A DNA stretch of 64,000 nt. Source: an uncultured Candidatus Saccharibacteria bacterium (GTDB lineage Bacteria; Patescibacteriota; Dojkabacteria; J137). The stretch's first letter is position 1. The number at the start of each line of letters is the position of its first letter. Location: positions 5,203 to 69,202 of the forward strand of contig CAYTGI010000005.1 in the NCBI GenBank assembly GCA_964437465.1, given 5' to 3'. Below are positions 3,490-53,124 of the stretch, piece after piece. The translations under genes were made by a program, and so were the position numbers. Under the pieces are notes generated by a model. That model was not told the origin of the DNA and searched no databases. It was given only the letters and a program-made list of their open reading frames with translations.

Positions 3490-3912
3490 TCAGTACCAAC
3501 CTTCCATAATCGTCACTTTCATTTTTTGCTCAGGATTTTTTAGTAGTTCGACAATTTTTCTATCTAAATGATTAGCTCCTCTATTTAAATTGAACCCAAG
3601 AGTTCTTTCTGAATCAAAATGACTTTTTCTTAAAACTATTTCGTGGTCAGAGTTAAAGTTCGGATTTATTGTGCACTTAAATTCACTTGAAATAATCTCA
3701 CCATTTTCATCTTTAACCTCACAAATTACCTTTATCTTTTTCTTAAATTCTTTTAGTTTAGAAGTTTCAAAATCAGACTTTATTCCGATGATACAATCCC
3801 CTCGTTCGGTTAGATCTTCGTCTTTTGTAAACTCTATTGTCTTAAAGTGGGTTGCAAGAATATTTGGATGGCCAAAACATGTGAATGAGTAAGATCTCCT
3901 ATCTTCAGGCAT
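3490..3912 (-). CDS. DUF371-like protein
   Basis: FGHPNILATHFKTIEFTKDEDLTERGDCIIGI resembles the DUF371 family as remembered. Confidence 0.4.
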   Translation of the reverse strand: MPEDRRSYSFTCFGHPNILATHFKTIEFTKDEDLTERGDCIIGIKSDFETSKLKEFKKKIKVICEVKDENGEIISSEFKCTINPNFNSDHEIVLRKSHFDSERTLGFNLNRGANHLDRKIVELLKNPEQKMKVTIMEGWY

Positions 3913-4108
3913 TTTTTACAAAGTTTTTAACTACTTCAACAAAGTAAAAAACGATAATTGAAAGGATTGCATTTAGAGTAACTACCAAGAAATTCATTTC
4001 TTCAAAAATAGAAACAATAGCTAAAGTTGAAATGAAAACTGAAACGAAAATGGTTAATGATTTTATTAGATTGTTTTTAAGAGAGGATTTTTTTAGTTGA
4101 ATATTCAT
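3905..4108 (-). CDS. Small membrane protein (hypothetical)
   Basis: 67-aa hydrophobic ORF. Confidence 0.3.
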   Translation of the reverse strand: MNIQLKKSSLKNNLIKSLTIFVSVFISTLAIVSIFEEMNFLVVTLNAILSIIVFYFVEVVKNFVKNA

Positions 4109-4386
4109 ATATCTTGTCTTTTTTGCCAGATTAGTCTAAAGATTCTTCCAAAGAATAAGTCAGCAATTATAAATAAAACTGTATAGAGAATTGATTGAAA
4201 AATAGAGCTAGTCAAACTATCATTTTCATTGAGAAGAAAATAGATAAGTGAAGCAATTAAAAAGATAACTGATGGATATAAACGATTCACCCAACTCTTA
4301 AACCAAGCAGCTTCTTTTTTTAGTGCTTTATTAGAGAGTTTTAATTTTTTTATTTCTTTTTCGTACTGACTAGTGCTTTTACTCAT
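4105..4386 (-). CDS. Membrane protein (hypothetical)
   Basis: 93-aa ORF with a transmembrane segment. Confidence 0.3.
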   Translation of the reverse strand: MSKSTSQYEKEIKKLKLSNKALKKEAAWFKSWVNRLYPSVIFLIASLIYFLLNENDSLTSSIFQSILYTVLFIIADLFFGRIFRLIWQKRQDI

Positions 4387-4404: not shown

Positions 4405-5052
4405 CTATTTGACTACAATTCCAACTATGTAAAAAACATCACGATTTCTCTTACTCAAGATTTTCTTTCCCCAAGGTGATTCAATAAGTTCCTTTTCTTC
4501 TTCTGTTAACTTTTTTACTTCAGTAATCTTTATTCCATATTTTAGGATTTCTTTTTTAAAATCACTATTTAAATATTTTTCATTAAGTTCCGGCAGATCT
4601 CTTTCGCTTTTGAACTTCTCTTCATATTTTTCATCATAAGTTGTTACTACTTTTAACATTCCGTTATTTTTTGCAACTATAGCAATATTGCTAATAATAT
4701 TATTATCTAAATTTATAAAACCCTCTAATAAAGATCCCCAAGGAAAGTTTATCTGAACTTCATCGGCAACTGATTCAAGTTCTTTTGGAAGGTTCTCCGC
4801 AACACCATGAATAAAAACTATATTTCTTAAACCACCTTTTGCAAGTTTTCTCCTTGCTTTTCTAGAGACTTCTTCTAGCCCTTTGTAGTTTGCATCAATT
4901 CCAATATAGAAAATTCCAGGGTTATTGTAGGCTTGTTTATAGGTCTGTTTTCCATCGCCACAACCTAAATCAACGATAACTGACTTAAAACTAGGGTCAA
5001 TTTTGAGTTTTTCAACTGGATAGGTTTTCTTGCCTCTAATCTCATTAATCAT
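4405..5052 (-). CDS. NpmA/KamB-like 16S rRNA (adenine1408-N1)-methyltransferase homolog (class I SAM methyltransferase)
   Basis: Motifs VDLGCGDG, FYIGIDAN, KGGLRNIVF, LPKEL..AD, INFPWGSLLEG, VTTYDEKYEE and ITEVKKL align with the remembered NpmA/KamB pattern. Confidence 0.5.
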   Translation of the reverse strand: MINEIRGKKTYPVEKLKIDPSFKSVIVDLGCGDGKQTYKQAYNNPGIFYIGIDANYKGLEEVSRKARRKLAKGGLRNIVFIHGVAENLPKELESVADEVQINFPWGSLLEGFINLDNNIISNIAIVAKNNGMLKVVTTYDEKYEEKFKSERDLPELNEKYLNSDFKKEILKYGIKITEVKKLTEEEKELIESPWGKKILSKRNRDVFYIVGIVVK

Positions 5053-5092
5053 AAAGTAATTATAACCAATAAGTACTAAGGTACCTAGGTAC

Positions 5093-5121
5093 TTGAGTAC
5101 AATAGTATTAATTTGTATAAT
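5093..5121 (+). promoter_or_regulatory. Sigma70-like promoter (TTGAGT-N17-TATAAT)
   Basis: -35 at 5093-5098 and -10 at 5116-5121 with a 17-nt spacer. Confidence 0.45.
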
Positions 5122-5127
5122 TGCGAC

Positions 5128-5169
5128 ATGAAATTCAGATTTTATTATTACTACTTATACCTGACCTAG
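5128..5169 (+). CDS. Tyr-rich leader peptide MKFRFYYYYLYLT (putative attenuator leader for tyrA)
   Basis: 13-codon ORF with 5 Tyr and 2 Phe codons between the promoter and a terminator hairpin, immediately upstream of prephenate dehydrogenase. Confidence 0.45.
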   Translation: MKFRFYYYYLYLT

Positions 5170-5197
5170 GGAGTTAGTAATATTTGTATGATAATAG

Positions 5198-5225
5198 AAG
5201 CTCCTAAAAAGGGAGCTTTTTTTTG
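5198..5225 (+). terminator. Rho-independent terminator / attenuator hairpin
   Basis: aagctcc-taaaaa-gggagct followed by T8. Confidence 0.55.
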
Positions 5226-5256
5226 CCTAGTTTACTTATTTTTTAATTAATTCGTT

Positions 5257-6009
5257 ATGAAATATACAGTTGGAATCATTGGAAATGGGAGGTTTGGAGA
5301 TATGCTTTATAAGACGTTTGATAGATTTGGTAAGAACGATTTTAAAGTAAATATGTTCTCTAGAAGTTATGACCATAATAATGCAAAAGTTAAAAGTAAA
5401 AATTCAAAAAGATTTAGCTCATTAGATGAAGTGTGTTCTTCAGACATTATTATCCCTGCAGTTCCTATTTCTGTTTTTGAAAAACAAATAATTGATATTA
5501 AGGGCTTAGTACCAGAAACATCATTAGTTGTTGATGTTTGTTCCGTAAGTGTTCATCCTGCTAAGGTAATGCTCAAAAATCTAAAGTGTGATCTTCTTTC
5601 AACTCATCCAATGTTTGGTCCGGATTCTTCTAAAGATGCTACTGATTTTAAAGATTTAAAATTCATACATCATCCACTCAAAGTAACTAACCAAGAAAAG
5701 GAAGATGCATTTCTTTCTTTTTGGAAAGAACTTGGATGTGACATGAGACAGCTAACCCCAGAAGAACACGATAAACAGGCAGCATACACTCATGCATATG
5801 CTTTTTTAATAGGTAAGATAGGTATTATGATGGAAGTTAGAAGAAATGATATATCTACAAAAGGCTTTGAGGGTGTTTTGTACAACCAAGAAGCTGTTGA
5901 AAACGATACGAGCACGCTTTTTAACGATATGTTTACTTATAACCCTTTTGCAAAAGAGATGGTGTCTAGATTTATTAAGACAGTAAAGGAGATACAAGGT
6001 AGGTTATAG
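5257..6009 (+). CDS. tyrA: Prephenate/arogenate dehydrogenase
   Basis: N-terminal Rossmann GIIGNGRFG, plus PAVPI and STHPMFGP motifs. Confidence 0.8.
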   Translation: MKYTVGIIGNGRFGDMLYKTFDRFGKNDFKVNMFSRSYDHNNAKVKSKNSKRFSSLDEVCSSDIIIPAVPISVFEKQIIDIKGLVPETSLVVDVCSVSVHPAKVMLKNLKCDLLSTHPMFGPDSSKDATDFKDLKFIHHPLKVTNQEKEDAFLSFWKELGCDMRQLTPEEHDKQAAYTHAYAFLIGKIGIMMEVRRNDISTKGFEGVLYNQEAVENDTSTLFNDMFTYNPFAKEMVSRFIKTVKEIQGRL

Positions 6010-16941: not shown

Positions 16942-19194
16942 TTAATCAAATTTAATACTTTGTATTATTTGATCACATTCTGAGTAGTTATTATTGTTAG
17001 AAGAACAAGAAGCTACTAGTAACTTGTTTGAATCGTTTAAGTATCTAAAACTAGATTCAGCACAATCATTTTCCCTTGGAGCAACAATAGCTGGACAGTT
17101 GTTATCTAAGTAAACTTTATCTGTGTAGAAAACTGAATTTGTATCATTAAAGCTTACTCGATATAATTCTCCTACATTATCAATTTCTCCTATTAAAACA
17201 TAATCAGCAACTATATTTGGGTATGCCTCATAAGGAATTCCAATATCTAAAGTACTGTTCTCAGTACTAATTGTAATTCCATCAAGGTAAGTAGAATTTT
17301 CTACCACATTAAATCCGCTTGGAACAGAGAGATTATAATATTTTAACATAGCCCCAAGTGAATCTACAAAATCTTCAGTAGAAATAGTATAGGTTGTGCC
17401 ATAAGAAATTGGCTCGCCACTTAAATATCTCAAACTATTTAAAATCTCAATGACTGCTTCAAGATTTAATTCATCTACTCCTCTAACACTTACAGTACCA
17501 ACATTAACCTCAATTCCTCCAAAAATTCTTCCATTACCTTCACATAAACTAATATCTGAGTATATCTGTTGATTAACGTTGATTGGTTTTTGAGTACCAT
17601 TACATCGTCCGTCATTAGCTCTATTTGTAACAAAAAATGACAGACCATCCCCAGCAAAAGTTAGATTACTTCCTCCTTCATCTCCTGTCCCTTGAGTCTC
17701 ACAAGACCAGTTTTCAGGGATTGAGAATCCAATACCAAGAACAGAATCGTTACAAACTTTGGTAGCCTTTTCAACTTCTCCAATAGCTTCTATACTATTG
17801 AAAAATTCGATAGCCTCTTGATTATCATTTAAGAATGTATCGATCTCAATAACTTTATTTCCATATTGAAATAAATATTTATTAGGGAAGAAATCGGCTA
17901 TTCCAACAATACCTAACTTTGTAACATTTGTACCAAAAAGAGTAATCTCTTCTTGGGCGGTTATTCCATAGTTAGCTATACCTGTTGGTTGCTCAGCATA
18001 AATCCTCTCAAGCTCACTTATTCTATTTTGAACAGCTCCGTTACTATATGTAACTAGTACAAGAGACTCATCTACACAACCAAGTCCACATGGAAACCCA
18101 ACAAATCTTTCAGGAGTATAGAAAATTGTCAATGAATTACCATTCTCAAACTCGTTTTCTTGTATAACAAAGAATTTATTTTCAGTTGTAAATTGATCCT
18201 CCCCAGTTATAAATTCAATACCTTCATAGCTATCTTGTTTTGGTAAATTAAAGCTAATACCGTATTCTTCATAGGTGAATTTTTCAAAGGAAGTATTTAT
18301 TTCATTATCTTCATCCTGTTCTTGAACAATAGGGGTTGGCTCAGGTTCTGGGGCAGGCTGATTGTTATTAACAGCAACAGCACCAATGCCAATTCCAGCA
18401 CTTGCAAGTAAAATAGAACTACCAGCTATAATTTTAGCTGTTGTTGTGGCTAGTAAACCTCCACTAGCAGAGGCTGTAGCAACAGAACTTCCAGAAGAAG
18501 CTCCAATAGCGGCACCTGCAGCAGCACCAGTTAAATTTGTCATATTTGTTAAAGTAACACCTAAAGTAGATCCAACAGCTGAAGCAATAGCAGCCGAGCT
18601 CGAAGCGGTCATTGCATAAGCAGGTTGGACAGAAACACCTAATATTCCAGCTAGAATAATAGGTATAGAAACAGTTTTTAAAGCTAGAGATTTTTCTTCT
18701 CTAGAGACTGACAATTTAAGATCTTCAATCCCTCTATAAAATCTTTTCTTAACAGAATCAACACCCATTTCAACAATTGAAGCTATTTCATTAAAGCTCA
18801 TTTCATCCCAGATTCTCATAATAATAATATCTGAGGTCACTTCATCCATATCTTTTAATTTTTCTTCAATGTATTCAATTGTTAACCCATTCACCACTTC
18901 ATCTTCGAATGAGCTCATGCTCTTCTCAACCTCTTCCTCGAAATTTTCTGTATGAGTAGTATCTTTCGTGCTTTTTTTAGTTTGTTGGTTATAAATCATA
19001 TTTCGACTTACTTTAAAGAGCCAAGCTCTTTTGTTTTCAATAAAATCAAATTCCTCATTTTCAAATAAAGCAATAAACGCTTCAGATGCAATATCTTGAG
19101 CTTCTTCATTATTTCCAAGCCGAAACTTACAAAATCTGAAAATTTCAGGTGAATGCTCTTTATATACTTTTTCGAAAACTTGTTCTTTGTTCAT
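16942..19194 (-). CDS. ECF sigma factor fused through TM / low-complexity segment(s) to a large C-terminal domain
   Basis: Sigma70 region 2 (FRFCKFRLGNNEEAQDIASEAF) and region 4 (IIIMRIWDEMSFNEIASIVEMGVDSVKKRF), then a hydrophobic, Ala/Gly/Ser-rich segment and a ~480-aa domain. Confidence 0.7.
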   Translation of the reverse strand: MNKEQVFEKVYKEHSPEIFRFCKFRLGNNEEAQDIASEAFIALFENEEFDFIENKRAWLFKVSRNMIYNQQTKKSTKDTTHTENFEEEVEKSMSSFEDEVVNGLTIEYIEEKLKDMDEVTSDIIIMRIWDEMSFNEIASIVEMGVDSVKKRFYRGIEDLKLSVSREEKSLALKTVSIPIILAGILGVSVQPAYAMTASSSAAIASAVGSTLGVTLTNMTNLTGAAAGAAIGASSGSSVATASASGGLLATTTAKIIAGSSILLASAGIGIGAVAVNNNQPAPEPEPTPIVQEQDEDNEINTSFEKFTYEEYGISFNLPKQDSYEGIEFITGEDQFTTENKFFVIQENEFENGNSLTIFYTPERFVGFPCGLGCVDESLVLVTYSNGAVQNRISELERIYAEQPTGIANYGITAQEEITLFGTNVTKLGIVGIADFFPNKYLFQYGNKVIEIDTFLNDNQEAIEFFNSIEAIGEVEKATKVCNDSVLGIGFSIPENWSCETQGTGDEGGSNLTFAGDGLSFFVTNRANDGRCNGTQKPINVNQQIYSDISLCEGNGRIFGGIEVNVGTVSVRGVDELNLEAVIEILNSLRYLSGEPISYGTTYTISTEDFVDSLGAMLKYYNLSVPSGFNVVENSTYLDGITISTENSTLDIGIPYEAYPNIVADYVLIGEIDNVGELYRVSFNDTNSVFYTDKVYLDNNCPAIVAPRENDCAESSFRYLNDSNKLLVASCSSNNNNYSECDQIIQSIKFD

Positions 19195-45294: not shown

Positions 45295-48200
45295 TTTAAG
45301 ACGTACACTTTTAACGTTTATTTCGCATGCTTAGTTTTTTTACTATCAGCATCTAGTATTGAGGCTGCAAGCAATACAATAGATTTTCAAGGAAAGATAG
45401 TGAATAAAGGTGATGGAACGAATTTAGTGTCTGGAAGTCCTGCATGTGTAGTAGTTGGGGCAGATACTTGTGATTTTAGAGTAAGAGTTTACGATGCTTC
45501 TAGTGGTGGAAACTTACTTTTTGAAGAAGAACATACAAATTTAGAGATTGGAGATTACAATGGGATTTTTAATTTAAGTATTAATAGTATCTGTGCTTCT
45601 ACTCTGAGTGGTGGAGTTGATTGGGGAACAGGAGGATGTATTAGTAACGGTTGTGTAGATTTTAGTAGTACTAATGTGTATTTTGAGATAAGTTTTCACC
45701 TGCAGGAGATTCTACATACACAGAAACATTTACAAGAAAACAAATTAGCCAGACACCAAGCGCATATTATGCTGAAAGAGCGGGGAGTGTTGGTGATTTA
45801 AATGGATTTAATGAAACTGATTTTGTTCAGTTTGGTCAGGGTAGTACTCAAACAAGTACAAATACTAATGGTTTAATTAATATAACAACTACAGGTAATG
45901 TTGTTAGTCCTTTAATATTTCTTAATGAAAACTGGGCAGGTACTCCCCTACTTTTAGATTTACAGGAAGGGGGATCGACTCAATTCAGTATAGGAAATAA
46001 TGGAGTAATAACTTCTGATTCTTTAGCTGGAGGAGGGGTTCAATGTTTACAGTCAGATAACAGTGGGATAATCTCAGCTACGGGTTCAGCATGTGCGGGA
46101 AGTTCTCCCTGGACAATAGATATGAGTGACATTTACTATAACGGAGGAAATGTTGCTATTGGAACTGGAGCCCCAGGAGCCACTTTATTCCACGTTCAAG
46201 AAAATACTACAGGTTTACCAACATTTGGAAGCGACACTTCCTCTGCCTTTTCAAGTATTAATGACACGTATTTAGCTATAATTTCGGGAGCGGCGAATAT
46301 ATCTGGAATTAATTTTGGAGACAATAGTGATGAAAATCCTGGAATAATAGCGTATAACAATGCTTCAGATTCATTTGTGTTTACAACTGGAACATCAACA
46401 GCATTGACAATAGCTTCTGGGGGAGGACTTACTGCTAATAGTTTGGCTGGAGGTGGAACACAATGCTTGCAAGTAGATAATGCTGGATTAATTGCTGGAA
46501 GCGGTTCAGGATGTGCAACAAGTCTATGGACAGATGGAGGAACAACTACCTACTTAACTTCAACAACAGATGATGTTGCATTTGGAGGAACTGGAGGCTC
46601 TTCTCCATTCTTCTTTGATGTAAGTGATCCGTCGATAAATATTAATAGCACACAGGTTTTATACCTTCCAGATCAAACTACATTTGCGGGATCTTTGATT
46701 ATTGGTAATGGTGGGACTAGTTTGAGTACCTCCACTAATTCTACAGGTGTTGGTATTGGAGCTTTAACTAGCCTTTCATCTGGATCAAGTAACACAGCTG
46801 TTGGAACAAATTCATTGACATTAAACTCTACTGGAGCAACTAATGTTGCTATAGGAGCATCAGCTCTGTCTGGAATTGCTGATGGTTTTGCAAATGTTGC
46901 AGTAGGTACATTTTCAATGGAATTAAAGTCATCAGGAAATCACAATATAGCAATTGGAGGGCAATCGATGTATAGGAGTTTTTCAGGTGCAAATAATATA
47001 GCAGTTGGATCCTCCGCACTATATAATAATAGTTCAGATTCAAATGTGGGTATTGGATATAATGCAGGCTATAGAGTTAATGGAGATGATAATATTATTA
47101 TTGGAGATAATGCAGGAGCAGGTATTGGGTCATCGACAACTACGTACTCAATAAGTAATAACGTCTTGGTTGGGACAAGGGCAGGTCAGATAATGGGTAC
47201 TAATGCTAACAATAATATTTTAATTGGACATCAAGCAGGTAATAATTTATCTATTGGAGCTAACAATATTGTAATTGGGTATGACATCGATGCACCAAGC
47301 TCTTCAGGCTCAAATAGAATGAGTATTGGGAATATAATCTATGCAACAGGAGTTGATGGCACAGGGACAACAGTAAGTACAGGAAATCTTGGAATTGGGA
47401 TTGCAAATCCAGATAGTAATACTGAACTTCATATATACGATCCAGGAAACACAATACTGGGTATACAATCTGGGGCTCAGTCTATATGGGGTATAGAATC
47501 CTTATCAGCTTCTAATGCCATGAGGATTGGTAATTTAAATGGGGCTGTCCTAAACAATCATGTATATATAACTTCAGGAGGTAATGTTGGGATTGGGGAT
47601 GTTCCTTTAGATAAGCTACATGTATTTGGAGATGCTAGGGTTGGAACAGGAACAACTGGTTGTATTAAAGATGCAGATGGCACTACTATAGCAGGTACAT
47701 GTAGCTCTGATTTGAGATTAAAGGAAGAAATTAGAGGATTTGATTCAATATTAGAAAGATATGTACAATTAGAACCTGTATTTTATAAATGGCGATCTGA
47801 AGAATTCCCTGAATTACATCTTGGAACTAGTGAAATTAGTGGGTTAATTGCACAGAATGTTGAACAATTATTTCCAGAACTAGTTGCATATGATGAAGAT
47901 GGATTCAGACAAATTAATTTTTCAGCGATAGACTTTTATACAATTCAAGCAATAAAAGAACAGCAAGAACAAATTGATAGCTTACAGGCTCAACTGGCAA
48001 GTATTAGTAGTAATCCACCTGGATCACAACCATTAGAACATGCAATTTTAAACAATCTAACAATTAGAGAAAACTTGAACATAGAAGGAAAATTGAATCT
48101 TGCTGATGACTCAGCTGATGTAATAGAAATTCCTGCAGGAGATGTTGAGTTTTCTTATACATTTAACACCGCTTACTCCTCTACTCCTATTGTATCTATA

Positions 48201-48341
48201 ACTCCAATTTCTGAAGAGGTGCTTAGTGAAGGTATCGTTTATATTGTAACTAATTCTGATCAAAACGGTTTTACTATAAAATTAAATCAACCAGCATCAG
48301 TTAATATCTCTTTCAACTGGACTGCTTTTGGGGACCTTTAA
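45295..48341 (+). CDS. Giant tail-fibre-like surface protein, paralog A (frameshifted at the T4 run 45694-45697; no canonical start)
   Basis: The N-terminal domain is paralogous to 48421-53124 (GKIVNKGDGTN...CDFRVRVYDASSGGN). Reading T5 at 45694-45697 joins it to ORF 46122-48341. Contains Gly-rich N-x-A-I/V-G repeats and a C-terminal S74-like intramolecular chaperone motif, SDLRLKEEI...GLIAQNVE. Confidence 0.5.
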
Positions 48342-48420: not shown

Positions 48421-51400
48421 ATGTGTAGAGTAATGAATCAGATTAGTAACATAAAGCGTAAAAACAACGCTCTTTATTCAGGGTCTAAAAAAAGGCCTGT
48501 TTTAGCTCGTCAACACAAGTTTGCTATTCCATTAGCAATTTTATCTGGACTGCTATTTTTATTATTTATTCTTATAAACACAGGAGGGTTATATTCTTTC
48601 TTAAATATTTTCGCTGCTACAAGAACTATAAATTTTTCAGGAAAGATTGTTAATAAGGATGATGGAACTAATGTTGTTCTTGGTGATCCTGCTTGTGTTT
48701 TAGCAGGAGCAGATACATGTGATTTTAGAGTTAGAATTTTTGATGCAATAAGTGGAGGAAATCAGCTTTTCCAAGAAGATCATAATGATATTGAGATTGG
48801 TGATTTTACAGGAATATTTACTCTTGATATTAACTCAATTTGTAATTCTCAGGTAGTTGGAACAGTAGACTGGGCTACAACAGCTTGTGTAAGTAACGGA
48901 GGAGTTGATTTTAGTAGTTCAAGTATTTATATAGAGATCTCATTTTCTCCAGCTGGAGATGGAACTTATACTGAGGTTTTTGGAAGACGGGCTTTTAGTA
49001 ATACAGCGAGTGCATTTTTTGCCGAAAGAGCTGGAAGTTTGAATGGATTGACTAGTGATGATTTTGTTCAGCTAGCACAGGGAACCACTCAAGTTAACAG
49101 TGATGATTTTAGCTTAATAGATATTGAGACAACAGGAAATTTAACTGATCCTCTAATTGTTGTTAATGAGAATGGAGCGGGAACTCCTGACCTTTTTGAT
49201 TTTCAAGTGGGGGGGGACTCGATATTTACTTTAGATAACGATGGATTATTATCACTGTCAAATGATCAAGGGGTAACGAATTTAAGTATTGAAGAGTCAA
49301 ATGCAACTAACGATAACCGTACTTTATTAAGTTTAATAAACAATGGAGGAGCTATAATTTCTTTGGAAGATACTGATTCTTCAACGCAAGCTTGGAATAT
49401 CATAGGTAGTGATGAATTTACTATAAAGAACGATGCGACACCCGCAAATGACTTATTAAAAATCGATGATTTAGGCAACGCCTACATGTTTAATGGACTT
49501 ACTATTAATGATGGTTTTGATTCTTCTACAATCTCAGCTATTTTAAACTTTGGAGGCGCAAATACTGAAACAATTGAGTGGTCAGCTCCTAACAGTAGAT
49601 TTGAAATCTCCGACGATTTAGATGTGTTTAATAGCTTAACTGTAGGTGATAGTGTTGGAATTGGTACTCAAAGTCCTTCAGAAGCTTTAGATGTTGTGGG
49701 ATCTGTTCAGCTAAGTGGTGATATAAAAACTACTAACCCTTCTCAGTTATTACCAGCAAATTCTTTAGACTATGTGAAAAACATTCCTAATTCAAGAGGA
49801 GGAGTTTCAGGAGATCCAATAAGTCAGTTTGACTTTGAATTAACAGATAATGAGTACTTTTTAGTAGGAGCATTTAGTGGATCTGTTGATTTTGATACTG
49901 ATAATAGTATTCCTGGTGACACCTTAACAAGTCAAGGCACAGATGGTTTTATTGCAAAATACAATCTCAACGGAACTCTTCAATGGATAAAACAGATTGA
50001 GGGTTCATCCATTGAATCTGTCACAGAGGTAGAAACTGATTCAGCTGGAAATATATATGTCTTAGGTAATTTCTCTTCAAGTAATGTTGATATTGATCCA
50101 GATAACTCAGTTTCTGGAGATACCTTAAGTGAATCTGGAGGAAGAACATTTTTAGCAAAATATAATAGCTCAGGAGTTCTACAATGGGTTAAGCAGATGG
50201 GTCAAAGTGGATTTCTATACATAGTTGGGAATGACATGTACGTTAACGATTCAGGAGATATTCATTTCACTGGATATTTCTATGGAGGAATCTCAATAGA
50301 CTTCGATCCTGATAATGTAGTTGTTAACGATACTCATTCAACTACTAGTTTCACTGAAGGCGATGCTTTTTTAGCAAAATATAACACAAACGGTCTAATT
50401 CAATGGGTACATGCAATAGGGACAACAAATGACACCCTTCGAGACAGCGGTAAAAAAGTTTTTGCTGATTCCGGAGGAGATGTGATTCTTGTAGGTGATG
50501 CAAGTCAAGGATTATTTGATTTTGATGAATATAACGTAGGATCTGATGATACCTTTGACTTTTCGACCGGTGAAGGAATATTTATTGTTAAATATAATTC
50601 TTCTGGAGTTGCTCAATGGTCAAAAGGATTAATTGATAATGGTGGACAATTAAACTCTGGAGTAGTAATTGCTGATTCCTCAAATAATATCTACTACACA
50701 GGAGGCCTACAAGGCACATCAAATGACTTTGATGATGATAATGTTGTAGCTGGAGACACTTTAAACCAGATAAATGGGGTTGATTCATTTTTGGTGAAAT
50801 ATGACTCAAGTGGATTACTTCAATGGGCAAAAGCTTTGGATATCAGTAGAACCAATGCTTTAGACATAACACCTTCTGGAGAAGTTTTAGTTGGAGGTAC
50901 ATTTAATACGACTCCAGATTTTGATCCTGATAATGTTGTTAGCGGTGATACAGTTGCTGCAGTTGGTGTTAAAGATATATTTTTTGCTAAATACGATTCA
51001 ACAGGCCTTTTAACAGAGTTGAAAACTATAGGTACTTCAGGGCAAAATGCAAATTTATCTCATATTGCTATTGACTCAAGTTCAAATATATATACCCAAG
51101 CTTCTTACCTTGGTACTATCGATATGGACTCTGATATAGTTATTTCTGGAGATACTATTTCATCATCTACCACGAATGGATATTATATTGCTAGATATTC
51201 ATCATCTACTCAATCAATAGCAGGATCAAACATAGGATCGTCTTCTAGCCCTTTTGGAAATACATATACAAATGCTTTAAACATTTCCGCTATTACTGGA
51301 TCAACTCAATGTTTGGAGATAGACACAAATGGAAATGTATCTGGATCTGGAATTACTTGCGGAGGTCTTTGGACTGCAAACGGAAGCGATATTTACTACG

Positions 51401-53124
51401 ACTCAGGATATGTTGGTATTGGAATAACCGCTCCGACTTCACCGCTTACAATTGTTGAATCAACTAATGTATCCGCTTTAGATATTCAATCAACAGGAAT
51501 AACAGATAAACCATCTGTATCAATAAATGAGCTACCTCTCTCTGTTGATGTAAATACAGGTAAAGCACTTGAGTTTAAGGTGACTGGTGAATCTTTCGGA
51601 AGAGGAATGTTCTATTCTGACGGATCTATTGGATTTGGCGGGGGCACGGCTACAACAGATGTATTTTTAAACAGAGACTCAGCTGGAATTTTAAGGATAG
51701 ATTCAGATAAAGCTGGAGGAGCTGCTGACTTGTTAATTGAAGGAAGTCTTGGGATTGGAGACAACGTTACTCCTACAAACATGATTGACATCAATACAAC
51801 TGGGGCAACGAGGGGAATAAGTTTTGATGGACGGGTTGCAATTTCAGGTTACTCTGCTAGCTCTTACCTTTACTTGAATAATGGGAATAATTTTTCAGGA
51901 GGTGTATATGCCCCAAGCGATTTTATTGCAACTGAGATTAGAACAAGTACTACTGATTATGGGGCGTATGACATTCAGACACATGATGATTTGTATGTTA
52001 ATGATTTAGGGATATTTATGGGAGGTGTACACGTTGGAGGAACAAGTGATCCAGGAACAGATAATCTTATTGTTGATGGTAATGCCTCAATTGGTAATAC
52101 TTCTATATTAACTTCGGCCACTCTAAGGCTTGGAGATGATGGCTCGACTTATGGGCTTTTCATGGACTCCCCCAATGTTGCTACTGCCTCAACATATTAT
52201 GGATTATATGTAGACGAGATAGATGGTGGCATAACTAATAACTATGGAATGTATATTAGACCTATGACAGTATCCGGCTCAACCGCTTTTGGTGCAAGAA
52301 TTGGAGAGGTGTCAGGTGCAACTAATACCTACGGTTTATTTGTTGATGCAACATCCTCTCAAGACTACGGTGTATATATAGAAGGGTCCACAATGAGCGC
52401 TGGTCAATACTCGCTGTATGCAGAATTTGATATAAGAACTGAAGGACGATTTGAACTAGGAAATCCAGGTAGTGGAGGAGACGATGTTTGTAGAGTTGCC
52501 TCAAACCAAAGGTTATCTCTGTGTTCATCTAGTATAAGATATAAAGACAACGTTCTGGATTATTCAGGAGGATTAGATCTACTTAAACAATTTAGGTCTG
52601 TGTCTTTTGACTGGAAAGAGACAGGTATTTCGGATATGGGGTTTATTGCTGAAGAGGTTGAAGCAATAGAGCCCTTACTAGTATTTTATAGGGATGGTAA
52701 GGTTGAGGGAGTTAGATATAAACAGATGACAGCACTGATGAAAAATGCTGTTATCGAGATTGATGATAGACTTTTAGATGTCGAATCTAGATTAGATCTA
52801 CTTGCTGGAGGATCAGGAACGAGTGCTGTTACTTCCCTTACCGAAGCAATCATCACAGGAAAACTTACTGTAGATGGATTAGTTGATTTTAACGAGGATA
52901 CTGTTGCGACTGCTACAATTGGAAGTGGAGATACAGAAGTAGAGATCATTTTTAGTGAAAGCTACTCTACTCCACCTGTAATTACAGTTACACCAGAAGG
53001 TGAGGATTTTATTAATTCTGGAGTTACATATACAATTATAGATAAGGATGAGGATGGGTTTAAGATTAAGATCTCAGATCCATACACAGAAGATTTATTA
53101 TTTAACTGGCACGCATTTGAGTAA
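48421..53124 (+). CDS. Giant surface protein, paralog B: N-terminal domain, SBBP beta-propeller repeats, Gly-rich repeats, S74-like chaperone domain
   Basis: SBBP-type repeats (FIAKYNLNGTLQWIKQ, FLAKYNSSGVLQWVKQ, FLVKYDSSGLLQWAKA) and a C-terminal SSIRYKDNV...GFIAEEVEAIEP motif. The C-terminal domain is shared with paralog A. Confidence 0.6.
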   Translation: MCRVMNQISNIKRKNNALYSGSKKRPVLARQHKFAIPLAILSGLLFLLFILINTGGLYSFLNIFAATRTINFSGKIVNKDDGTNVVLGDPACVLAGADTCDFRVRIFDAISGGNQLFQEDHNDIEIGDFTGIFTLDINSICNSQVVGTVDWATTACVSNGGVDFSSSSIYIEISFSPAGDGTYTEVFGRRAFSNTASAFFAERAGSLNGLTSDDFVQLAQGTTQVNSDDFSLIDIETTGNLTDPLIVVNENGAGTPDLFDFQVGGDSIFTLDNDGLLSLSNDQGVTNLSIEESNATNDNRTLLSLINNGGAIISLEDTDSSTQAWNIIGSDEFTIKNDATPANDLLKIDDLGNAYMFNGLTINDGFDSSTISAILNFGGANTETIEWSAPNSRFEISDDLDVFNSLTVGDSVGIGTQSPSEALDVVGSVQLSGDIKTTNPSQLLPANSLDYVKNIPNSRGGVSGDPISQFDFELTDNEYFLVGAFSGSVDFDTDNSIPGDTLTSQGTDGFIAKYNLNGTLQWIKQIEGSSIESVTEVETDSAGNIYVLGNFSSSNVDIDPDNSVSGDTLSESGGRTFLAKYNSSGVLQWVKQMGQSGFLYIVGNDMYVNDSGDIHFTGYFYGGISIDFDPDNVVVNDTHSTTSFTEGDAFLAKYNTNGLIQWVHAIGTTNDTLRDSGKKVFADSGGDVILVGDASQGLFDFDEYNVGSDDTFDFSTGEGIFIVKYNSSGVAQWSKGLIDNGGQLNSGVVIADSSNNIYYTGGLQGTSNDFDDDNVVAGDTLNQINGVDSFLVKYDSSGLLQWAKALDISRTNALDITPSGEVLVGGTFNTTPDFDPDNVVSGDTVAAVGVKDIFFAKYDSTGLLTELKTIGTSGQNANLSHIAIDSSSNIYTQASYLGTIDMDSDIVISGDTISSSTTNGYYIARYSSSTQSIAGSNIGSSSSPFGNTYTNALNISAITGSTQCLEIDTNGNVSGSGITCGGLWTANGSDIYYDSGYVGIGITAPTSPLTIVESTNVSALDIQSTGITDKPSVSINELPLSVDVNTGKALEFKVTGESFGRGMFYSDGSIGFGGGTATTDVFLNRDSAGILRIDSDKAGGAADLLIEGSLGIGDNVTPTNMIDINTTGATRGISFDGRVAISGYSASSYLYLNNGNNFSGGVYAPSDFIATEIRTSTTDYGAYDIQTHDDLYVNDLGIFMGGVHVGGTSDPGTDNLIVDGNASIGNTSILTSATLRLGDDGSTYGLFMDSPNVATASTYYGLYVDEIDGGITNNYGMYIRPMTVSGSTAFGARIGEVSGATNTYGLFVDATSSQDYGVYIEGSTMSAGQYSLYAEFDIRTEGRFELGNPGSGGDDVCRVASNQRLSLCSSSIRYKDNVLDYSGGLDLLKQFRSVSFDWKETGISDMGFIAEEVEAIEPLLVFYRDGKVEGVRYKQMTALMKNAVIEIDDRLLDVESRLDLLAGGSGTSAVTSLTEAIITGKLTVDGLVDFNEDTVATATIGSGDTEVEIIFSESYSTPPVITVTPEGEDFINSGVTYTIIDKDEDGFKIKISDPYTEDLLFNWHAFE

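Follow-up and report, generated by a model that had tools for sequence, protein, structure and literature searches.

A chromosomal NpmA-family methyltransferase gene and its linkage to DUF371 in a Dojkabacteria-like bacterium

The window (the whole 64-kb stretch of DNA analysed here, from contig CAYTGI010000005.1) carries on its minus strand a gene for a 215-amino-acid (aa) protein that is a true member of the Kam/NpmA family of 16S rRNA methyltransferases, closest to NpmA. The gene is a vertically inherited chromosomal resident, neither a cassette nor the self-protection gene of an antibiotic producer, and it is followed by genes for a small membrane protein and for a protein of the DUF371 family. 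Judging from the sequence and its setting, we consider it likely that the gene encodes an active methyltransferase, vertically inherited and acting at N1 of A1408 on the 30S subunit of its host, within an operon that includes the membrane protein and DUF371. The original prediction had called the gene an NpmA/KamB homolog, and this identification is confirmed. As such, the gene is an ordinary, previously unnamed member of a known family; what the present analysis adds is the linkage to DUF371, a partner that the original prediction had not seen.

The enzyme family is clinically important, as N1-methyladenosine at position 1408 (m1A1408) gives pan-aminoglycoside resistance. In the present locus, a gene of this family is an ancestral, fixed part of the chromosome of an ultra-small bacterium and not of a mobile element; the locus bears on the origin of such genes and on their role where there is no antibiotic producer. 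The recurrent coupling to NpmA-family genes also provides a first functional lead for DUF371, a family with two crystal structures to which no function has so far been assigned.

Family membership and functional residues

The open reading frame (ORF) is uninterrupted, running from the ATG at 5052-5050 to a stop codon at 4405-4407 that lies within the span. The start codon is right, since the protein aligns from residue 1 onward with the N-termini of its closest homologues. The original prediction rested on a set of NpmA/KamB-like motifs, and every one of them is present in the translation: VDLGCGDG, FYIGID, KGGLRNIVF, LPKELESVAD, FPWGSLLE, VTTYDEKYEE, LPELNEKY and ITEVKKL.

Profile searches place the protein in the family over nearly its entire length. 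The Pfam NpmA model (PF24675) matches residues 5-209, corresponding to profile positions 3-210 of 214, with 187.2 bits against a gathering cut-off of 60 (E = 3.2e-55). The top four NCBIfam models are the four A1408 methyltransferase models, namely NpmA (151.6 bits), WarA (122.3), NpmB (114.7) and KamB (89.9), all of which remain below their cut-offs (470 for NF000030, 305 for NF051863, 460 for NF040634 and 350 for NF000363, respectively). By these scores, the protein belongs to a separate lineage of the family and is not one of the named resistance determinants (NpmA, NpmB, KamB and WarA). When PDB sequences were searched with phmmer, NpmA (3mte/4ox9) was the best match (E = 1.2e-43, residues 6-213), followed by NpmB1 (2e-31), UncKam 7jlz (5e-29), CacKam (9e-27), KamB (4e-22) and Kmr (2e-19), and everything beyond these six A1408 enzymes was no better than E = 2e-4. 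A global alignment gave 41% identity to NpmA. The profile and pairwise comparisons with NpmA and KamB that had been proposed as a check of the original prediction thus came out in its favour.

The predicted structure agrees with the sequence comparisons. An AlphaFold2 model built from an alignment with 74 homologues has a mean predicted local distance difference test score (pLDDT) of 95.6 and a predicted template modelling score (pTM) of 0.92. Foldseek against the PDB returned as its first 19 matches chains of m1A1408 methyltransferases only, from six enzymes, with template modelling (TM) scores of 0.71-0.89 and NpmA 3mte as the best; after these chains the E-value rises from 1e-17 to 1e-10, and generic methyltransferases reach TM scores of at most 0.6. 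The model displays a class I core with the family-specific β2/3, β5/6 and β6/7 linkers.

The residues that matter in NpmA are well defined. The substitutions D30A, W107A and W197A each abolish kanamycin resistance, and S-adenosylmethionine (SAM) is contacted by G32-x-G-x-G36, D55 and E88 (PMC3061052). R207 of the β6/7 linker grips the phosphate of the flipped A1408 and is braced by E146, R153 of the β5/6 linker touches the 16S rRNA and W197 positions the base, with R207, E146 and R153 carrying out the base flipping, while the basic β2/3 linker serves for docking onto the 30S surface (PMC4705659). The tryptophan pair W107/W197, which stacks on the flipped base, is essential in NpmA and kept in all known members (PMC3061052, PMC4705659).

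In the global alignment, NpmA D30 corresponds to D28 of the present protein, the glycines G32, G34 and G36 to G30, G32 and G34 (G30-C-G32-D-G34), D55 to D53 and E88 to E86. P106-W107 is found as P104-W105, E146 as E144, R153 as R151, S195 as S192, W197 as W194, K199 as K196, R205 as R202 and R207 as R204. The linker lysines K66, K67, K70, K71 and K74 correspond to R64, K65, R68, K69 and K72 in the segment S-R64-K65-A-R-R68-K69-L-A-K72-GGL, so that all five are kept as K or R. Every residue with experimental importance in NpmA is therefore retained, including the SAM-binding and A1408-handling residues whose conservation the original prediction had singled out for checking. In the 74-homologue alignment D53, P104, W105 and W194 are invariant, and in an alignment of 14 sequences so are R204, W105 and W194.

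The family extends well beyond the characterised enzymes. Searched exhaustively with phmmer, a set of 1.84 billion cluster representatives yielded 465 relatives at E ≤1e-10 and 843 at E ≤1e-3, and a pattern scan of species-representative genomes yielded 208 relatives, distributed over Chloroflexota, Acidobacteriota, Bacillota, Actinomycetota (including Nocardia), Patescibacteria and others. Two proteins of unusual architecture were also observed: P0299 (369 aa), in which the methyltransferase is fused to a C-terminal GNAT acetyltransferase (Acetyltransf_3), and P0291 (476 aa), in which it follows an N-terminal α/β hydrolase.

Chromosomal setting and the DUF371 partner

The window is a piece of bacterial chromosome, with rpoB, rpoC, two class I tRNA synthetases, ribosomal protein S20 and TatD. 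The nearest homologues of the methyltransferase, at 63-67% identity, come from metagenome-assembled genomes (MAGs) of Candidatus Dojkabacteria and from MAGs with a generic label of the candidate phyla radiation (CPR), and the host is a Dojkabacteria-like CPR bacterium. The reduced genome assumed by the original prediction is in keeping with this, the nearest relatives with conserved synteny being Dojkabacteria MAGs. The conserved gene order consists of a divergent prephenate-dehydrogenase-like gene, then the methyltransferase, the 93-aa protein and DUF371, followed by a 183-aa membrane protein, S20 and TatD; it is kept in five related genomes (L002, L003, L004, L005 and L082). Protein identities across this syntenic block are 50-77%, and those of the methyltransferase 50-67%, a divergence similar to that of its neighbours. 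The GC content of the gene is 31.0%, against 33.9% for the window. Pfam searches on the flanking genes found no transposase, integrase, plasmid or antibiotic-biosynthesis genes; the neighbours are TatD, S20, DUF371, the prephenate-dehydrogenase-like gene, a serine hydrolase, the tRNA synthetases and rpoB/rpoC. The locus thus lacks the marks of a mobile gene, having flanks without mobile genes, synteny in five relatives and a native GC content, and it also lacks those of producer self-resistance of the KamB/KamC type, as no aminoglycoside biosynthetic cluster adjoins the gene.

The DUF371 protein of the window matches profile positions 2-131 of 133, and its relatives in the PDB are 7y7n and 3cbn (MTH639), both at E = 2e-12 and both uncharacterised. 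In ECOD, DUF371 is described as a duplicated 8-stranded β-barrel related to GutA-like IIA proteins of the phosphotransferase system and to RIFT barrels, with a conserved His motif (PMC4256011). In the literature searched, no function was reported for DUF371, and whole-word mention of the name was confined to this fold-classification work.

The association between DUF371 and NpmA-family enzymes recurs in several forms. At least 11 proteins are fusions of the two, and such fusions make up 9 of the 150 top representatives at the 50% identity level; in the fusions P0010, P0021 and P0025 the methyltransferase is N-terminal and DUF371 C-terminal. DUF371 is directly adjacent or fused in 10 of the 81 loci that were fetched via the methyltransferase, and these come from Patescibacteria, Anaerolineae, Thermodesulfobacteriota, Acidobacteriota and Thermoleophilia. 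They comprise the CPR group (L001-L005), an Anaerolineae MAG in which the genes are adjacent (L010), a Thermodesulfobacteriota MAG in which they are fused (L034), two Acidobacteria MAGs in which DUF371 is encoded immediately upstream (L075 and L051) and a Thermoleophilaceae MAG in which it is a divergent neighbour (L080). In the reverse direction, an NpmA-family gene lies immediately upstream of DUF371 or is fused to it in 11 of the best 80 DUF371 metagenome loci, from a scan built on a narrow alignment of DUF371 sequences, and the 12 DUF371 sequences with the highest similarity to the window's own include 10 of these 11. On a rough neighbour-joining tree (no bootstrap), the DUF371-linked enzymes occupy at least three separate parts. 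No DUF371 linkage occurs in the parts that hold NpmA, which groups with Clostridia/Bacillota, NpmB, which groups with Acidobacteria, and the Nocardia group. The linkage is robust and is undescribed in the literature searched. Because fusion and adjacency recur in this way, DUF371 most likely functions together with the methyltransferase, possibly as an adaptor, a regulator or a second enzyme at the same ribosomal site.

RsmI is a housekeeping 16S rRNA methyltransferase that modifies the 2'-O of C1402, in the same helix as A1408. In the two Acidobacteria MAGs and the Thermoleophilaceae MAG, DUF371 is the N-terminal part of 384-434-aa proteins encoded beside the NpmA-family genes (L075:660-1961, L051:8448-9695 and L080:10582-11733). 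Their 250-290-aa C-terminal domain has no Pfam or NCBIfam match at E ≤0.01; when Pfam matches up to E = 10 were considered, RsmI_C appeared at E = 0.045 for L080 only among the three. A profile of the three C-terminal domains matched RsmI in the PDB (9pzg, E = 2.4e-4) and an RsmI homologue (3kwp, 0.049). A homologue search with the L075 protein returned itself and one Catenulispora protein, and no Kam gene lies near the latter. We regard the resemblance of this domain to RsmI as a weak lead, not as established.

Outside the NpmA-linked loci, DUF371 was also observed in other settings. In two unrelated contexts, a metagenome contig (L084:2340-4441) whose DUF371 is 60% identical to that of the window and a Catenulispora MAG (L089:2263-6014), it lies downstream of a thioredoxin/thioredoxin-reductase pair and has no adjacent NpmA-family gene; in the former, a 90-aa two-helix protein persists just upstream of it. 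In an archaeal contig (L087, 2984-4842) and in Woesearchaeota (L085/L086), the genes next to DUF371 are one for a RIO1 kinase, a 79-aa ORF and one for a PUA/eIF2D-like protein, and a small gene with an RsmF-type PUA domain is close by. Of the best 80 DUF371 metagenome loci, 11 have PUA-like and 17 have Methyltranf_PUA-like neighbours. The PUA/eIF2D-like, RsmF-PUA-like and RIO1 neighbours are suggestive of small-subunit biology, and they probably represent one synteny block, not independent evidence.

The features of the locus are listed in Table 1. The 93-aa gene starts 18 nt past the methyltransferase stop codon, and Pfam gave no family above threshold for its product. Its orthologues stand between methyltransferase and DUF371 in L002-L004 at 49-61% identity (tblastn), in L005 and L082 the position is taken by an ORF that matches it in size and layout, and the similar 90-aa ORF of L084 likewise precedes DUF371. 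The 67-aa gene overlaps both of its neighbours, by 4 nt and 8 nt; a clear homologue was found in L004 only, and L002 and L003 have no room for it. A TATAAT hexamer also lies 5-7 nt upstream of the methyltransferase ATG in L002, L003 and L004. The promoter scan found no -35 element passing its criteria, and a Shine-Dalgarno sequence is absent ahead of the ATG. Given this absence and the spacing of the hexamer, the transcript is probably leaderless.

Table 1. Features of the methyltransferase locus in the window
Feature	Position	Strand	Evidence
Methyltransferase gene, 215 aa, first in operon	4405..5052	-	ORF, Pfam, PDB, AlphaFold2, critical residues
93-aa protein, charged coiled N-terminus and two hydrophobic helices, second gene	4105..4386	-	ORF, Kyte-Doolittle
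67-aa small hydrophobic protein, variable component	3905..4108	-	ORF, hydrophobicity
DUF371 (PF04027) protein, 140 aa, last operon gene	3490..3912	-	Pfam, 97.5 bits against gathering cut-off of 25
-10-like hexamer TATAAT, 6 nt upstream of methyltransferase ATG	5059..5064	-	Consensus match only

The prephenate-dehydrogenase-like gene (5257-6009) diverges from the methyltransferase gene, and the region that separates them contains a candidate attenuator with a tyrosine-codon leader peptide at 5093-5228 (+). A candidate promoter, TTGAGT-17-TATAAT at 5093-5121, is followed after 6 nt by a tiny, apparently leaderless ORF, MKFRFYYYYLYLT* at 5128-5169, in which 6 of the 13 codons specify Tyr. Behind it, at 5196-5228, lies a terminator consisting of a 10-bp hairpin and T8, and an AGGGAG at the leader stop codon, upstream of this terminator, could pair with the 5' arm as an antiterminator. 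The same leader design is found in L002 (MQNKYYYNYYVPLI*), L004 (MQNNFYYYTYYSYLI*) and L082 (MKRIAQNYYFYFFNPKSARR*), each with its own hairpin and T-run; the leader of L082 precedes a DAHP-synthase-like gene (a faint Pfam hit) and then the prephenate-dehydrogenase-like gene. In addition, four GTAC motifs with an 8-nt period (5073, 5081, 5089 and 5097) span 5073-5100 and include a perfect 12-bp palindrome, GTACCTAGGTAC, at 5081-5092. This repeat, which L004 retains in part, is placed exactly between the two divergently oriented -10 boxes; a shared regulator may use it as its operator.

Elsewhere in the window, two very large ORFs of 739 and 1567 aa lie downstream of rpoB/rpoC (46122-48341 and 48421-53124, +), each with a single Pfam match, to the Peptidase_S74 intramolecular chaperone domain, which is typical of phage tail-spike or fibre proteins and of surface fibres. 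A 750-aa ORF (16942-19194, -) has sigma-70 region 2 at its N-terminus as its sole Pfam match and is unusually long for a sigma factor. Across the whole 64 kb, no tRNA, tmRNA or Rfam family was found at the gathering threshold, and no rRNA gene.

Proposed action and alternative readings

By analogy with NpmA, the basic β2/3 linker (R64, K65, R68, K69 and K72) would dock the enzyme on the assembled 30S subunit, and A1408 of helix 44 would be flipped out of the helix. The phosphate would be held by R204, itself braced by E144, and the base would be sandwiched by W105 and W194, whereupon SAM, bound by D28, G30-x-G32-x-G34, D53 and E86, would donate its methyl group to N1. The resulting m1A1408 would destroy the aminoglycoside site in the decoding centre and render the ribosomes insensitive to kanamycin-, neomycin- and apramycin-type drugs. 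The m1A1408 modification is known to give aminoglycoside insensitivity and pan-aminoglycoside resistance, and insensitivity follows chemically if A1408 is methylated. The intrinsic pan-aminoglycoside resistance suggested by the original prediction is a hypothesis. Nothing in the sequence contradicts methylation of A1408. The comparisons above establish family membership, fold, residue conservation, synteny and the DUF371 linkage; from these we infer that A1408 is the target, that the enzyme is active in the cell, that it confers resistance and whatever role DUF371 may have. Resistance may be the selected function, or the methyl group may tune the ribosome, with resistance as a by-product.

Several points weigh against an active A1408 enzyme that works in concert with DUF371. 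The scores are far under all allele and equivalog cut-offs, and the function is transferred across about 60% sequence divergence. A 16S rRNA gene was not found in the window or in the fetched loci (Rfam, ARAGORN and a decoding-site DNA pattern). In the AlphaFold2 model of the fusion P0010, both domains have pLDDT >90, but the linker 230-241 is disordered (pLDDT <50) and pTM is 0.67, and the model gives no confident inter-domain arrangement or contact surface. To our knowledge, the characterised family members all work alone, and a conserved DUF371 could mean a modified substrate or regulation. Finally, a different CPR 'npmA-like' gene left aminoglycoside minimum inhibitory concentrations unchanged in E. 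coli BL21, the accession labels of the tested gene being ambiguous in that paper (bioRxiv 10.64898/2026.07.13.738296).

The most serious alternative is that the protein has the same fold and another job, either DUF371-aided methylation of another nucleotide or another RNA, or a tuning of A1408 in ribosome biogenesis that is unrelated to antibiotics. We consider it rather unlikely, though it deserves to be taken seriously: the characterised resistance enzymes all lack a DUF371 linkage, with NpmA, NpmB and the Nocardia group in DUF371-free parts of the tree; the gene is vertically inherited, and aminoglycoside biosynthesis genes are absent from its surroundings; Acidobacteria and Thermoleophilia have DUF371 joined to a domain with weak similarity to RsmI (the match to 9pzg); and the CPR homologue conferred no resistance in E. 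coli. However, all NpmA residues for positioning and flipping A1408 are conserved in the present protein, the two tryptophans are invariant throughout the family, DUF371-linked members included, and we know of no family member with a target other than A1408. Previous work describes A1408 enzymes only (PMC4705659). Moreover, a methylated A1408 would bring resistance no matter what purpose the modification serves. Methylation of A1408 by an enzyme associated with DUF371 remains our preferred reading, and the native genomic status of the gene, its coupling to DUF371 and the negative E. coli test of the other CPR homologue together advise caution. The same three points suggest that it may be a mistake to assay the methyltransferase on its own.

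The remaining alternatives carry little weight. A recently acquired mobile aminoglycoside-resistance gene, like the plasmid-borne npmA, would agree with the horizontal spread for which the family is known, and NpmB, with 94.6% identity to a gene on the chromosome of a Chloracidobacterium MAG, shows that environmental genes do get mobilised; such an origin is nevertheless highly improbable here, as the gene order is kept on both sides in five related genomes with a divergence like that of the neighbours, the flanks hold no mobile-element genes, the GC content is native and the -10 box is conserved. Equally slight is the chance that the gene is a decayed, inactive remnant, such as might be expected in CPR genomes under reduction, given that the ORF is intact with all catalytic and SAM-binding residues, that in relatives the gene persists at 64-67% identity and its partners are intact, and that the fold is predicted with high confidence. 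A TrmB-like tRNA (m7G46) methyltransferase, the outcome that would have told against the original prediction, or a generic small-molecule methyltransferase can be ruled out by sequence and fold, and we attach virtually no credence to either. The closest NCBI relatives are annotated merely as 'class I SAM-dependent methyltransferase', and TrmB models do match, with 45.7 bits for Pfam Methyltransf_4 (PF02390) and 38.9 bits for TIGR00091 (cut-off 112.65). These matches are partial and restricted to the SAM-binding N-terminal half (residues 24-104), the generic methyltransferase models of Pfam likewise match this half alone with no more than 46 bits, whereas the NpmA model covers the whole protein, and in Foldseek the generic methyltransferases rank after all 19 family chains.

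A broader proposal is that DUF371 is a dedicated partner of helix 44 methyltransferases, that m1A1408 is a built-in modification in such bacteria, possibly regulated or membrane-linked, and that NpmA and NpmB are stand-alone escapees from this arrangement. Its basis is the operon or fusion with NpmA-family genes in at least five bacterial phyla, together with the weakly RsmI-like fusions in Acidobacteria and Thermoleophilia; we put it forward tentatively, as possible but on balance doubtful. It raises the question whether some A1408 methyltransferases depend on, or are controlled by, a partner protein. If a partner is needed, the negative CPR test and other heterologous tests of the methyltransferase only would put environmental reservoirs of resistance too low.

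Comparison with known systems

NpmA (plasmid-borne, E. coli ARS3; PDB 3MTE, 3P2E and 4OX9) is the closest characterised relative of the present enzyme, with 41% identity over the full length, the same length and a predicted-structure TM score of 0.89. The NpmA residues D30, D55, E88, P106, W107, E146, R153, S195, W197, K199, R205 and R207 are identical in both. The two differ in their genetic setting: the present gene is chromosomal and vertically inherited in a CPR host and shares an operon with the genes for a small membrane protein and DUF371, while NpmA is plasmid-borne and without DUF371. The clade described here was also considered as a source of clinical NpmA, which is unsupported, as genes of Clostridia/Bacillota are closer to NpmA (about 46% against 41%).

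KamB, Kmr, CacKam, UncKam, NpmB and WarA share with the present protein the Pfam family, the fold, the invariant Trp pair and the SAM motifs. They are more distant than NpmA (PDB E = 2e-31 to 2e-19; NCBIfam 90-122 bits, below the cut-offs). KamB-type enzymes are self-protection genes of aminoglycoside-producing actinomycetes, a context unlike that of the present gene, which has no biosynthetic genes near it. As to NpmB, its sequence (taken from 7ehf) shows the 94.6% identity mentioned above to a gene of L042, an uncultured Chloracidobacterium sp. MAG (CAZGLZ010000090.1), and 85% identity to a gene in an Acidobacteria MAG (L025), so that Acidobacteria are a likely source of clinical NpmB on sequence similarity.

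In CPR bacteria, Razzouk et al. (2026) annotated 16S rRNA methyltransferase homologues as resistance genes in a survey that included Dojkabacteria assemblies (bioRxiv 10.64898/2026.07.13.738296). An NpmA-family gene in a CPR genome is thus of a kind already known from that survey. The gene that Razzouk et al. tested in E. coli came from a WWE3 or Parcubacteria assembly, and the DUF371 operon and fusions are undescribed there (bioRxiv 10.64898/2026.07.13.738296). DUF371/MTH639 (3CBN, 7Y7N) has been known as an archaeal orphan family, and here a bacterial subclade of it is tied to NpmA-family methyltransferases.

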